Source: Escherichia coli (GTDB lineage Bacteria > Pseudomonadota > Gammaproteobacteria > Enterobacterales > Enterobacteriaceae). Taken from it: a DNA stretch of 64,000 bases. A program made the position numbers and the translations under genes. The stretch lies in the NCBI RefSeq assembly GCF_003334305.1, contig NZ_QOWS01000011.1. One strand, given 5' to 3'. The stretch's first letter is position 1. The number at the start of each line of letters is the position of its first letter. The notes beneath the pieces are model-generated. The model searched no databases. It was not told where the DNA came from and saw only the letters and a program-made list of their open reading frames with translations. Shown here in pieces: positions 7,682-11,718 of this stretch.

Positions 7682-8173
7682 TTACTCCTGCCTGATTAAC
7701 TGAATATTTCGGGTAATTGCCGCTTCACGAGCCAGTGCGGTCACACAACATTTCCGCTGTAAAACCAGTATTCCCGAGCTTAACTGTGCGATATCGGCAT
7801 AACTTAAAAGTCGATCACGATGAAGGTAGATCGGTTGCCCTTGTTCGTCGCACCAGCTTAGCGGTAGACGGGCGAGAGTCTTCAATTCAATGGCGTTCAG
7901 GAAATGACGCTGCAACGACAATTGAATGTGCAATCCCCAGGCTAACGCTTCGTGTATCTGAATCGCTGCTCGATCTGACGTTTCGTTCTCCGCAAGTTGT
8001 CGCAGCAGCGGCAGATCGACATATCGGATTTGTAATGACGCATACTGATGAACGCTCTCTTGAACGCTGGCGTCTCGCAGTTGAAAAACAGTCAGCACGA
8101 GTGTTTTTCCCGCACGTTGTTTAAGGCGAAAAACCACTTCGTCAACAATACGTTGCATCAGCATGTTATTCAT
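7682..8173 (-). CDS. pduM: PduM, microcompartment structural protein
   Basis: 163 aa, operon position between pduL and pduN; no catalytic motif. Confidence 0.75.
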   Translation of the reverse strand: MNNMLMQRIVDEVVFRLKQRAGKTLVLTVFQLRDASVQESVHQYASLQIRYVDLPLLRQLAENETSDRAAIQIHEALAWGLHIQLSLQRHFLNAIELKTLARLPLSWCDEQGQPIYLHRDRLLSYADIAQLSSGILVLQRKCCVTALAREAAITRNIQLIRQE

Positions 8174-8802
8174 GGCACTGACACCAGTGTGGCAAAAACG
8201 TCAGGGCTATCAGCGCCTGCGGCGTTGGCCTCATCGGTATCAATATGCATTTCAAGACGCATATCCGGAGAGACGCGAACAGCGACGTTTTCGAATATCA
8301 GTCGTCGCTCATCACCTTCAATGGCAACCGCCACTTTATCGCCATGCGTAACGCCATAAATCAGGGCATCCAGCGGAGACATATGAATATGCCGTTGCGC
8401 GACAATAACGCCAGATGTGATCTCCAGTTCCGCAAATGGGCTTATCAAACGAATCCCCGGAGTGCCGCTGAGATCGCCTGACATGCGTAGCGGGGCGGTG
8501 ATCCCTAACGTTCTGGCGTCCGTCCGGGAAATTTCCACCTGACTTGCATTGCGTAGCGGCCCCAACAAGCGAACGTTGTGCAATTTGCCTTTTGGTCCCT
8601 CCAGCGTAACAACCTGTTCCGCAGCGTATTGGCCAGGTTGCATTAACGGCTTTTTCTCGCTAATCGGTTGTTCAGGAAAAAGACGCAAATAATCCGCTGT
8701 TGAAAGATGTATATGGCGACTGGAAACGCCCAGTGGGATAGGGCGCTCGCGCATCTCATCCAGAATCTGGTTCACTGTTTCCTGCAAGGTTTGTTTATCC
8801 AC
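8170..8802 (-). CDS. pduL: PduL, phosphate propanoyltransferase
   Basis: 210 aa; starts MDKQTLQETVNQILDEM; size and position match PduL. Confidence 0.85.
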   Translation of the reverse strand: MDKQTLQETVNQILDEMRERPIPLGVSSRHIHLSTADYLRLFPEQPISEKKPLMQPGQYAAEQVVTLEGPKGKLHNVRLLGPLRNASQVEISRTDARTLGITAPLRMSGDLSGTPGIRLISPFAELEITSGVIVAQRHIHMSPLDALIYGVTHGDKVAVAIEGDERRLIFENVAVRVSPDMRLEMHIDTDEANAAGADSPDVFATLVSVP

Positions 8803-8804
8803 TG

Positions 8805-9227
8805 CTACTCCCCTCGCTTATTGGCGTACAGGCAAAGTGAGCGGGGCTCACCTTTTTGCCGCTGACATGCCGGGTCAAGACACAAATTACAACTGATAAT
8901 CTCTGAGGTGACGGTTGTTGCTGGTGTTTTGCTTGTTTCAACCGTCACGGTCAATGCTTCAGTTGTGTGGGGCAGAATGCCGTCTCCCGGGCGGGCAATC
9001 ACTTTGTGTGCGACAAGGCCATTTCGCTGTCCGGCGAAACTGGCTCCCGTCGCGATCGCCGCATTAACCGAGGCGACGTCACCGGTGATTTTGATGAGCG
9101 TCCAGCCTGAGCCATTGGTCTTCTCAAGGCCAACCAGCGTGATGGACGCGGCTTTTGCCATAGCGTCTGCGCAACTGATGGCGAGAGCCAGACCACTGAC
9201 TTCAAGTAATCCCAGTGATTGCTTCAC
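8805..9227 (-). CDS. pduK: PduK, microcompartment shell protein with C-terminal Cys-rich extension
   Basis: 140 aa; N-terminal BMC domain (LGLLEVSGLALAISCADAMAKAA), C-terminal tail with CNLCLDPACQ...C. Confidence 0.8.
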   Translation of the reverse strand: MKQSLGLLEVSGLALAISCADAMAKAASITLVGLEKTNGSGWTLIKITGDVASVNAAIATGASFAGQRNGLVAHKVIARPGDGILPHTTEALTVTVETSKTPATTVTSEIISCNLCLDPACQRQKGEPRSLCLYANKRGE

Positions 9228-9250
9228 GCTGTGCTCCTTAGTAAATGGGG

Positions 9251-9526
9251 TTATGCCGATTTAGGTAAAATAGCCTCAACATCACTGTGTGGGCGCGGGA
9301 TGACATGGCAGGATTTCACTTCGCCAACGGCGCTTGCGGCGGCGCTTCCTGCGTCAACGGCGGCTTTTACTGCGCCAACATCGCCACGGACCATCACTGT
9401 AATCAGACCCGAACCAATCTTTTCATAGCCAACCAGTTGCACGTTGGCGGATTTAACCATGGCATCTGCAGCTTCAATTGCGCCAACTAACCCTTTTGTT
9501 TCAACCAGTCCTAGTGCGTTGTTCAT
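9251..9526 (-). CDS. pduJ: PduJ, major microcompartment shell protein
   Basis: 91 aa; canonical BMC domain [26 protein letters not shown]. Confidence 0.9.
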
Positions 9527-9545
9527 ACAGCGTTTCTCCTGTGGA

Positions 9546-9896: not shown

Positions 9897-11718
9897 GAGC
9901 CAACTCCCTGTGCCAGGAAATCAGTAGCCCGGTAGCTACCGCATTGCGCGGGCCTTCACTACCACGGATATTCCCCCGTCCGGCGACCAATCGATAATGC
10001 GCCAATGCATCGGTGACTAACTGCGGGACTTCGAAATCCAGGGAAGAACCGCCCACCAGAACGACGAACGGAATATCGCGAATATTTCCGCCTGGACTTA
10101 CCTGACGTAGCGCGCGCAGGGCATTGGTTACGAAGACGCGCTCTTTCGCACTGCGGCGAACAGCACGTACTTTTTCCTGTGTTAAATCGCCGGGAATAGG
10201 CACCAGTTCGTCAGGTTTCACCACACAAACGCGGGCAAATACATGAGGGGACAGCGGAGTAGGGAAGAACTGAACGCTTCCGTCTTCATGGCGTAAATGG
10301 AACAGGCTTTCTACTTTTGCCAACGGGTATTTTTTGATTTCTTCTGCCAGATAACGATCATTTAAGCCCAGCTCACGAGCGATAATCATCGTTACCATGT
10401 CGCCCGCTCCCGCAAGGTGAGTGGCAACGATTTCCCCACTCTGATTGATGATGGAGGCATCGGTAGAGCCTGCACCTAAGTCCAGAATTGCCAGTGGACG
10501 TGTGGTTCCAGGGGTAGTCAAGGCCCCCTGAATGGCGGCTTCTGCTTCTGCGCCTCCGACCTGAACATCAACATGCAGTTTTTGCTTAATTTCACTGGCG
10601 ATCATCGCCATTTGCAGACGGTCGGATTTCACCATAGAGGCAATACCCACAGCCTGTTCCAGTGAAAATTCACCTGCCAGACCACCGGTTACGCTGACGG
10701 GGACAGAGGTATCTATCGCCAGCAAATCCTGAATAAAAATTTCGTTGCTGGGTTTGTTGGTCAGTTCCGCCATGGTCTGGCGAACATGTTCCAGCATTCC
10801 GCCGATGTTGGTGCCTGGTTCTCCCGTCACGTTTTCCAGTTTTGGGCACTCACCGACCGCTTTCATAATGGCATCGGCACCAGCAGCTACATCAACGCGC
10901 GTTGTGCGCCCGGCAGAAAGCAGTTCGATATTTCCGGCGGGTATCGAACGGGCTTTAACGTCGCCAGAGGGCGTTTTCACTACCACTGCTGAACGGTTGC
11001 CGATTAGCGCCCGCGCGACAGGAACAATATTTTTAGTCTCTTCAGCATTGAGGGCGAATACGGTGGCAATCCCATACGGGTTAGACAGGGTTTCGATAAC
11101 TTTCCCGGGAACGGCAACTTCAATTGCTGCCAGCATGCCGAGCGGAATACGATCGATGTAGAGGACTTCATCCACAATAGGTAAAGGAATTTCCAGGCGG
11201 TTATTGACCAGTACGCCATCGTCGCGTTGCAGAATAACGCCAGTCAGCTGATATCCGGCGCGTACGGAGGCGTTTATCATCGTCGCGATATCGGCAAAAT
11301 CAAATGCCGATGACACCACCAGGATGTAAGGTGTGTCCGCCGGGCGTGTTAATAACTCTTGCGGAGTGATGGTGAGCCCTACGCCCAGCCCCACTCCGCC
11401 CGGAGTTTTCGGGTTGTGACCGATCATGGTTGATTCGGTGATGATAGTTTCAGTGATGGTTTCCATCGCCACATCACCAATGACCGGAGTTGCTTCGTTG
11501 ATACGAATAAGCGAAATATCGCTAACATTGATGCCGACTTTTTTCGTTGCCTGTGCGAGCGCCTCCTGAATACCATGGACGTTACGCAACGTACCTTTAA
11601 TTCCGGTGGTTTCCGCCAGGGCGCTACTCACGAACGACAACTCTCCAGTTGCACTGAGCGTTGCCAGCGCAACCTCTGTTGATGAGTTGCCGATATCAAT
11701 GCCTGCTATATATCGCAT
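9886..11718 (-). CDS. pduG: PduG, diol dehydratase reactivase large subunit
   Basis: 610 aa; starts MRYIAGIDIGNSSTEVALA (actin/HSP70-like ATPase fold); size matches PduG. Confidence 0.9.
   Translation of the reverse strand: MRYIAGIDIGNSSTEVALATLSATGELSFVSSALAETTGIKGTLRNVHGIQEALAQATKKVGINVSDISLIRINEATPVIGDVAMETITETIITESTMIGHNPKTPGGVGLGVGLTITPQELLTRPADTPYILVVSSAFDFADIATMINASVRAGYQLTGVILQRDDGVLVNNRLEIPLPIVDEVLYIDRIPLGMLAAIEVAVPGKVIETLSNPYGIATVFALNAEETKNIVPVARALIGNRSAVVVKTPSGDVKARSIPAGNIELLSAGRTTRVDVAAGADAIMKAVGECPKLENVTGEPGTNIGGMLEHVRQTMAELTNKPSNEIFIQDLLAIDTSVPVSVTGGLAGEFSLEQAVGIASMVKSDRLQMAMIASEIKQKLHVDVQVGGAEAEAAIQGALTTPGTTRPLAILDLGAGSTDASIINQSGEIVATHLAGAGDMVTMIIARELGLNDRYLAEEIKKYPLAKVESLFHLRHEDGSVQFFPTPLSPHVFARVCVVKPDELVPIPGDLTQEKVRAVRRSAKERVFVTNALRALRQVSPGGNIRDIPFVVLVGGSSLDFEVPQLVTDALAHYRLVAGRGNIRGSEGPRNAVATGLLISWHRELAHGK

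Follow-up and report, generated by a model that had tools for sequence, protein, structure and literature searches.

The four-cysteine C-terminal tail of the shell protein PduK in an Escherichia coli pdu operon: a conserved module and candidate metal site

Does the cysteine-rich C-terminus of PduK, as encoded in an Escherichia coli pdu operon, hold a metal centre and, if so, of which kind? PduK is among the least understood of the Pdu shell proteins, and a decision between an Fe–S cluster and a structural metal in its tail would help to choose between redox or cluster traffic across the shell and organelle positioning. The matter also bears on shell engineering, in which PduK belongs to the minimal Pdu shell set and its C-terminus serves as a display handle. 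A sequence-only reading of the window (the whole 64-kb stretch of DNA analysed here) had taken the spacing of the terminal cysteines as suggestive of a metal or Fe–S site on a shell component. We find this suggestion supported, with the same caution with which it was put, in that the cysteines are invariant, although it is not new: both the tetracysteine motif of PduK and the Fe–S proposal are already known (Crowley 2010, through citing papers; Sargent 2013; Ferlez 2019; a 2025 Klebsiella study). By the comparisons below, the four-cysteine tail is real, strongly conserved and an ordinary known feature of PduK.

The pduK coding sequence (8805..9227, minus strand), as given by the list of open reading frames and its translation, starts with GTG and encodes 140 amino acids followed by a TAG stop. 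Its neighbours on the same strand in the list are pduJ (9251–9526) and pduL (8170–8802), and the minus-strand order of the reading frames is PduG-H-J-K-L-M-N-O. The pduL–pduJ stretch (8170–9530) shows 100% identity to E. coli M8 and other strains and was found in 642 of 5,426 complete E. coli genomes; in M8, the RefSeq annotation contains a full pdu operon, pduA through pduV, again with pduK placed between pduJ and pduL, adjoining pocR, pduF and cobUST. The pdu operon of this E. coli chromosomal window is intact. The only Pfam match in the protein is a BMC domain (PF00936) at residues 4–80 (8988..9218, minus strand; E = 7.8e-22). Because of this domain and the place of the gene between pduJ and pduL in an intact operon, we assign the product of the 8805–9227 reading frame as PduK, the name that it had already been given, correctly, from the letters alone. 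The protein has the make-up of a PduK-type BMC-H: a single N-terminal PF00936 domain, the pduJ–pduL position and a C-terminal tetracysteine tail CNLCxDPxCxRxKGEPRxxC. By proteomics, PduK is a minor shell component in Salmonella and Citrobacter (PMC5109269).

The RefSeq model of pduK in M8 (WP_369758279.1) is 149 residues long, with an ATA start at 9254 that overlaps the pduJ stop. This start is probably too far upstream, and the GTG at 9227 is favored because a Shine–Dalgarno sequence read from the DNA, AAGGAG (9234..9239, minus strand), lies 6 nt upstream of it; the GTG also coincides with the start of the Salmonella and Citrobacter proteins, and the same Shine–Dalgarno argument has been made for Salmonella pduK (PMC3836489). 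At the other end of the gene, the last four codons, K-R-G-E (AAG CGA GGG GAG; 8808..8819, minus strand), read as the Shine–Dalgarno sequence of pduL, whose GTG (8800–8802) lies 2 nt past the pduK TAG stop. Such double duty would constrain the residues K-R-G-E, and may explain their being kept in Enterobacterales and not in distant PduK tails.

Several features of the wider window were observed in passing. Positions of about 1–21500 are 99.6% identical to a stretch of M8 (locus L001), in the annotation of which the pdu operon ends at pduV, without pduW or pduX. Of the cobalamin region, the M8 annotation has, downstream of pocR and a cobalamin riboswitch, only a small hypothetical gene and cobU-cobS-cobT; from this reduced set it follows that such strains can salvage B12 and cannot synthesise it. 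At ∼22630, the window is without the roughly 21-kb integrative element that M8 has at a tRNA-Asn gene, and its sequence at about 35000–59000 is that of the yersiniabactin high-pathogenicity island (irp1, irp2, fyuA, ybtE and ybtU), with 100% identity.

The 8805–8900 stretch consists of the stop codon (8805–8807) and the final 31 codons of pduK, E110–E140. The 140-residue translation ends ...EIISCNLCLDPACQRQKGEPRSLCLYANKRGE*, and its tail reads C113-N-L-C116-LDPA-C121-QRQKGEPRSL-C132-LYANKRGE, with the cysteines at residues 113, 116, 121 and 132 and the spacing CX2CX4CX10C. The cysteine-rich terminal string reported by the sequence-only reading is thus present, but it does not end at CLY as stated there, since six more residues, ANKRGE, follow. 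The conserved module extends from C113 to Y134 (CNLCLDPACQRQKGEPRSLCLY; 8826..8891, minus strand), as supported by 144 cluster representatives, the codons of 56 genomes and an AlphaFold core with a pLDDT of ∼90. Ahead of it lies a variable and probably disordered linker (residues of about 89–110; 8898..8963, minus strand) with a conservation of 0.47 and a pLDDT of about 30. The E. coli linker is Thr-rich and, at about 25 residues, among the shortest of the family, and in the alignment it differs in both length and sequence among close homologues; linkers of distant homologues are acidic (20% Glu) and range from 16 to 209 residues, with a median of 93. The exact CX2CX4CX10C spacing occurs a single time in the six reading frames of the 64-kb window. 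When the five cysteines of PduK were placed at random, four fell within 20 residues in 3.3% of trials, a figure that is modest by itself; it is conservation that provides the decisive evidence for the tail.

Conservation was assessed in three sets of sequences. A full-length homology search, which was unselected for the tail, gave 497 matches, of which the 120 listed are 64–99% identical and enterobacterial wherever the source names the organism; all 120 keep the four cysteines. In this search the tail is the best-conserved part of the protein, with a mean column conservation of 0.95; the BMC domain reaches 0.91 and the linker 0.47. A second set comprised 56 species-level genomic copies, found with patterns derived from the tail itself and hence selected for tail-bearing PduK. 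In this set the codons corresponding to Cys113 (8889..8891), Cys116 (8880..8882), Cys121 (8865..8867) and Cys132 (8832..8834; all minus strand) encode Cys in 56/56 genomes, with both TGC and TGT used at each position, and the Asn, Asp, Pro, Arg, Lys and Gly of the tail are likewise invariant. Invariant Leu, Pro, Arg and Gly positions are encoded by three to five synonymous codons (four each for Pro and Gly). Because synonymous codons vary freely while the residues stay fixed, selection on the tail acts on the protein and not on the DNA.

For the third set, a profile of the tail alone was compared with 1.84 billion cluster representatives (50%-identity clusters) and, at E ≤ 0.001, matched 248 clusters. 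Of these, the best 150 include 132 with an N-terminal BMC domain and 144 with the exact CX2CX4CX10C spacing, and every one of the 144 motif-bearing representatives keeps the four cysteines. Their consensus is C-N-[LI]-C-x-D-P-x-C-[P]-R-x-K-G-[EDQ]-P-[RKH]-x-x-C-[IL]-H-[Y], and in distant homologues the module lies 3–30 residues from the C-terminus. The distant set was chosen through its tail, which biases any comparison of tail and BMC identity within it. Judged from these alignments, the tail module is under strong purifying selection at the protein level. Conservation of the cysteines among PduK orthologues was the point on which the earlier proposal had been staked, and it holds throughout (120/120 of the homologues listed, 56/56 genomes and 144/144 motif-bearing representatives).

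One position of the module departs from the family in this E. coli allele. The codon two residues past the fourth cysteine is TAC, for Tyr134 (8826..8828, minus strand), where the residue is otherwise almost always His: 140 of the 144 cluster representatives have His at this position, as do 55 of the 56 species genomes, the window being the only one with Tyr. The exact 47-nt stretch that includes the Tyr134 codon is present in 262 of the 642 pdu-positive complete E. coli genomes, and 58 others have it with a mismatch, bringing the total to 320. If His134 is a ligand or a contact residue, Tyr134 would be a common natural variant.

Most of the non-BMC rows among the best 150 clusters are fragments; the remainder comprise three eukaryotic repeat proteins, one chimera and a tail piece duplicated in tandem. 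Occurrence of the module outside BMC proteins was considered and rejected, the matches being fragments, an apparent assembly chimera (P0122) and three false positives among eukaryotic repeat proteins. As far as these clusters extend, they show the module to be confined to the C-terminus of PduK-type BMC-H proteins, barring fragments and likely assembly chimeras. Two other sequences, P0026 from Escherichia albertii and P0027 from Shigella sonnei, begin with the N-terminus of PduJ and continue, in the same frame, with the C-terminal part of PduK and its Cys tail; these are apparently chimeras that arose by pduJ–pduK recombination or deletion.

Among the distant tail-bearing proteins whose context was usable, six are found in B12-dependent PDU loci (L057/L058, L059, L060, L061, L064 and L065), which carry PduCDE, PduGH, PduL and PduP, and one is found in a glycyl-radical-enzyme locus (L066). 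PMC6325248 remarks on the rarity of PduK homologues in GRM loci, with which the lone case of L066 agrees. The L066 protein (10001–10846; GCA_049324235.1) is of PduK type, has 281 residues and the same Cys tail, and is encoded beside a PFL-like enzyme and a radical-SAM activase. Genes for PduS-like (Complex1_51K + Fer4) and PduT-like tandem-BMC proteins lie near tail-bearing PduK in the window operon, L057, L059, L065 and L066. Two related PDU operons, L060 (from a metagenome) and L064 (GCA_018449575.1), keep the tail-bearing PduK and have no PduS or PduT in the operon, which is otherwise complete (pduA-B-C-D-E-G-H-J-K-L-M-N-O-P-Q-U-V-W).

In an AlphaFold model of full-length PduK from a shallow alignment of 21 sequences, the pLDDT is below 50 for the tail and about 30 for the linker. 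When the tail alone was modelled from 140 diverse sequences, the mean pLDDT rose to 82, with about 90 in the core, and the model is a compact knot without regular secondary structure. Absence of regular secondary structure is usual in small metal knots. The tail-only result agrees with the pLDDT range of 70–90 reported for this part of Klebsiella PduK in AFDB models (PMC12058022). Databases of families and structures gave no counterpart of the module. The PduK tail as a query matched no Pfam family at E ≤ 10; on 140 tails, no Pfam Fe–S family matched and no Pfam zinc-finger model was significant (best E of about 0.03–0.08). No NCBIfam model covers the tail, EutK being the third-best match, through the BMC domain and far below the cut-off. 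The tail was uncovered in a sequence search of the PDB with PduK and the tail profile, the sole match being a chance one over 13 residues to CFAP141 (E = 0.19), and a PDB fold search with the tail gave no detectable match; the PDB relatives PduA, PduT and CcmK align to PduK residues 1–90 only. The tail has the conserved Cys ligands expected of an Fe–S protein (four, invariant) and matches no curated Fe–S motif or profile; nor does it show the canonical spacing and profile match of a zinc knuckle or zinc ribbon. It is also not of the PduT type, as PduK has one BMC domain and the motif cysteines lie in the tail rather than in a pore.

Crowley et al., in 2010 (JBC), are said to have found iron in purified PduK. 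According to PMC6325248, the tetracysteine motif 'may ligate an FeS cluster', and PMC3836489 states that four cysteines in the last 30 residues may bind an iron–sulphur cluster, which might account for PduK being barely detectable in small-scale expression tests. A passage of PMC12058022, itself second-hand in its wording, calls the Fe–S evidence for Salmonella PduK 'partly demonstrated'. Deletion of pduK leaves well formed organelles that are aggregated at the poles, with wild-type growth on 1,2-propanediol (PMC9132943), and polar aggregation without PduK is noted also in PMC3425506 and PMC13052382. On one proposal, the flexible C-terminal extension projects outward from the concave side (PMC9132943), and a SpyCatcher–PduK fusion on purified empty shells reacts with a SpyTag protein added from outside (PMC10350929). 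In the 2025 work, lysines of the PduK tail cross-link to PduA/PduJ, beta-mercaptoethanol altered the co-purification of PduK partners in Klebsiella, and the paralogue EutK is described as having a C-terminal domain of nucleic-acid-binding type (PMC12058022). PduK–PduT is among the experimentally characterised interaction pairs (PMC4315436).

In our reading, PduK has three parts: an N-terminal BMC domain that would tile into the shell, a probably disordered linker of variable length and a mini-domain of roughly 22 residues. The four invariant cysteines of this mini-domain would hold a metal centre, together with the invariant Asn, Asp-Pro, Arg and Lys-Gly and the almost invariant His. Both termini of a BMC-H protein lie on the concave, outward-pointing face, which would place the PduK tail at the cytosolic surface, and the hexamer that the literature assumes for PduK would display six flexibly tethered modules on the cytosolic side of the organelle. 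We infer that the tail faces outward and is a metal-binding Cys4 mini-domain on a flexible tether, a placement and a description that are well supported; that a metal of some kind is bound appears highly probable. The metal would most likely be iron, as a small Fe–S cluster, because of the partial published evidence for Salmonella PduK, and an Fe–S cluster specifically has close to an even chance of being the right assignment; its iron draws on second-hand wording. Candidate roles of such a centre are electron or cluster exchange with the cytosol and a metal-stabilised docking knob that would keep the microcompartments dispersed. Several observations speak against a cluster: the E. coli allele has Tyr in place of the near-invariant His, the spacing of the tail matches no curated Fe–S or zinc family, and the main effect of deleting pduK is mislocalisation of the organelles, growth being normal (PMC9132943). 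In addition, the two PDU lineages that keep the tail without PduS/PduT in the operon make it unlikely that the tail is tied of necessity to the known Pdu redox proteins.

The main rival to the Fe–S cluster is one structural metal ion in the Cys4 site, either Zn2+ or, as has been reported for the C-terminal metal-binding domains of SecA type, Fe2+, which would make the tail a basic docking knuckle and not a redox centre; we hold this to be a credible alternative that falls somewhat short of an even chance. The knuckle would keep Pdu microcompartments dispersed by binding a partner in the cytosol, such as neighbouring shell tiles, the nucleoid or RNA, or a positioning factor. The first three ligands have the CX2CX4 spacing of the CCHC (retroviral) zinc knuckle and the module is basic, so that a structural metal fits as well as a cluster does; the fourth ligand, however, follows at X10 and not at X4, and none of the Pfam zinc-finger models was significant on the 140 tails, as noted above. 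Within the module, Arg11 does not vary, Lys13 hardly varies and a basic residue nearly always occupies position 17; a near-invariant His and an aromatic residue follow, a basic/His/aromatic pattern that is typical of binding knuckles. Retention of the tail in PDU operons without PduS/PduT is in keeping with a docking role, as are the cross-links of tail lysines to PduA/PduJ and the nucleic-acid-binding type domain of the EutK paralogue (both PMC12058022) and the organelles of pduK deletion strains, well formed yet polar, with normal growth (PMC9132943, PMC3425506, PMC13052382). Opposed to it are the second-hand reports of Fe–S in Salmonella PduK, as worded in the passage of PMC12058022, and the fact that no partner is known. 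A narrower form, which we rate as unlikely, is that the tail is a hitherto unclassified, PduK-specific, metal-stabilised basic knuckle (Cys4 plus the near-invariant His) that tethers the microcompartments to some cytosolic structure, for example the nucleoid or a positioning factor, and is no redox site. Were it true, metal or redox occupancy might tune organelle dispersal, and the His134Tyr allele would be a natural functional variant present in roughly 40–50% of pdu-positive E. coli.

Within the Fe–S reading itself, a special case is a redox relay, in which electrons or whole clusters would travel from donors in the cytosol, by way of the surface-tethered cluster, to the [4Fe–4S] centre at the pore of PduT and then to PduS, to reduce cobalamin in the lumen. 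PduS-like and PduT-like genes accompany PduK in the window operon, L057, L059, L065 and L066, the PduK–PduT pair is listed as experimentally characterised (PMC4315436), and a flexible tether suits such transfer. The L060 and L064 operons, however, retain the tail without PduS/PduT while being otherwise complete; the pduK deletion has no growth defect on 1,2-propanediol (PMC9132943), and redox activity of PduK is itself putative. We consider a relay quite unlikely. Metal-free cysteines, forming either a disulfide knot or redox-sensing thiols (an oxidative-stress switch), are very improbable: four cysteines in 20 residues could pair in principle, and the beta-mercaptoethanol effect on Klebsiella PduK partners (PMC12058022) would fit, but the cytoplasm of bacteria is reducing, strict anaerobes are numerous among the hosts (those of Clostridia-type loci included), and the invariant Asn, Asp-Pro, Arg and Lys-Gly at fixed spacing resemble a ligand cage. 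Conservation at the level of the DNA, for instance as an internal signal for pduL translation, can be set aside as the cause of the Cys motif, because the pduL Shine–Dalgarno sequence inside the last four pduK codons could cover only the terminal KRGE in Enterobacterales, synonymous sites are free over the 22 motif codons and the motif is kept in distant taxa with another downstream gene order.

Relative to the published motif, which the window itself extends by no new biology, the present analysis adds the invariance of the motif in the 144 representatives that bear it (out of the best 150 of 248 clusters), a precise family consensus, the finding that no domain database or structure covers the module, and the natural His134Tyr variant.

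The tail can be compared with several known systems. Among classical motifs, ferredoxins have CX2CX2CX3CP, radical-SAM enzymes CX3CX2C and CCHC zinc knuckles CX2CX4HX4C. The PduK tail resembles these in being a short segment with four clustered ligands, and its CX2CX4 equals that of the CCHC knuckle; its complete CX2CX4CX10C pattern with the conserved N, D-P, R, K-G and H matches no classical Fe–S or zinc motif. The SEC-C motif of SecA, CXCX8C[H/C], is a basic knuckle of ∼20 residues at the extreme C-terminus behind a flexible linker; it serves in partner docking, and both zinc and iron have been reported in it. Its likeness to the PduK tail is an analogy only, as the ligand spacing is different, there is no Pfam match and no evidence of homology.

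Among shell proteins, EutK shares the PduK architecture, its N-terminal BMC domain being followed by a linker and, on the outside, by a small basic C-terminal domain. The EutK extension differs in being a helical fold of nucleic-acid-binding type (PF16365) without the Cys motif, and the two tails are dissimilar in sequence. PduT, in which the cluster is ligated by one Cys per subunit, shares with PduK its status as a Pdu shell protein with a proposed Fe–S centre, the operon and homologous BMC domains. In PduT, three tandem-BMC subunits form a pseudohexamer (PDB 3N79/3PAC family) with the [4Fe–4S] cluster at its pore, whereas PduK has a single BMC domain and contributes four Cys of one chain from a tethered C-terminal tail.

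The closest counterparts are the PduK proteins of Salmonella enterica, Citrobacter freundii and Klebsiella pneumoniae, orthologues with the same pduJ-pduK-pduL order, the BMC domain and the tail CNLCLDPxCxRQKGEPRxxC. Full-length identity between these and the E. coli protein is 64–80%. The E. coli linker is about 15–25 residues shorter (140 residues in the whole protein versus 154–160), and the E. coli allele has Tyr134 in place of the conserved His. The Fe–S proposal, the polar aggregation of organelles and the outward-facing tail all stem from PduK of these three genera.
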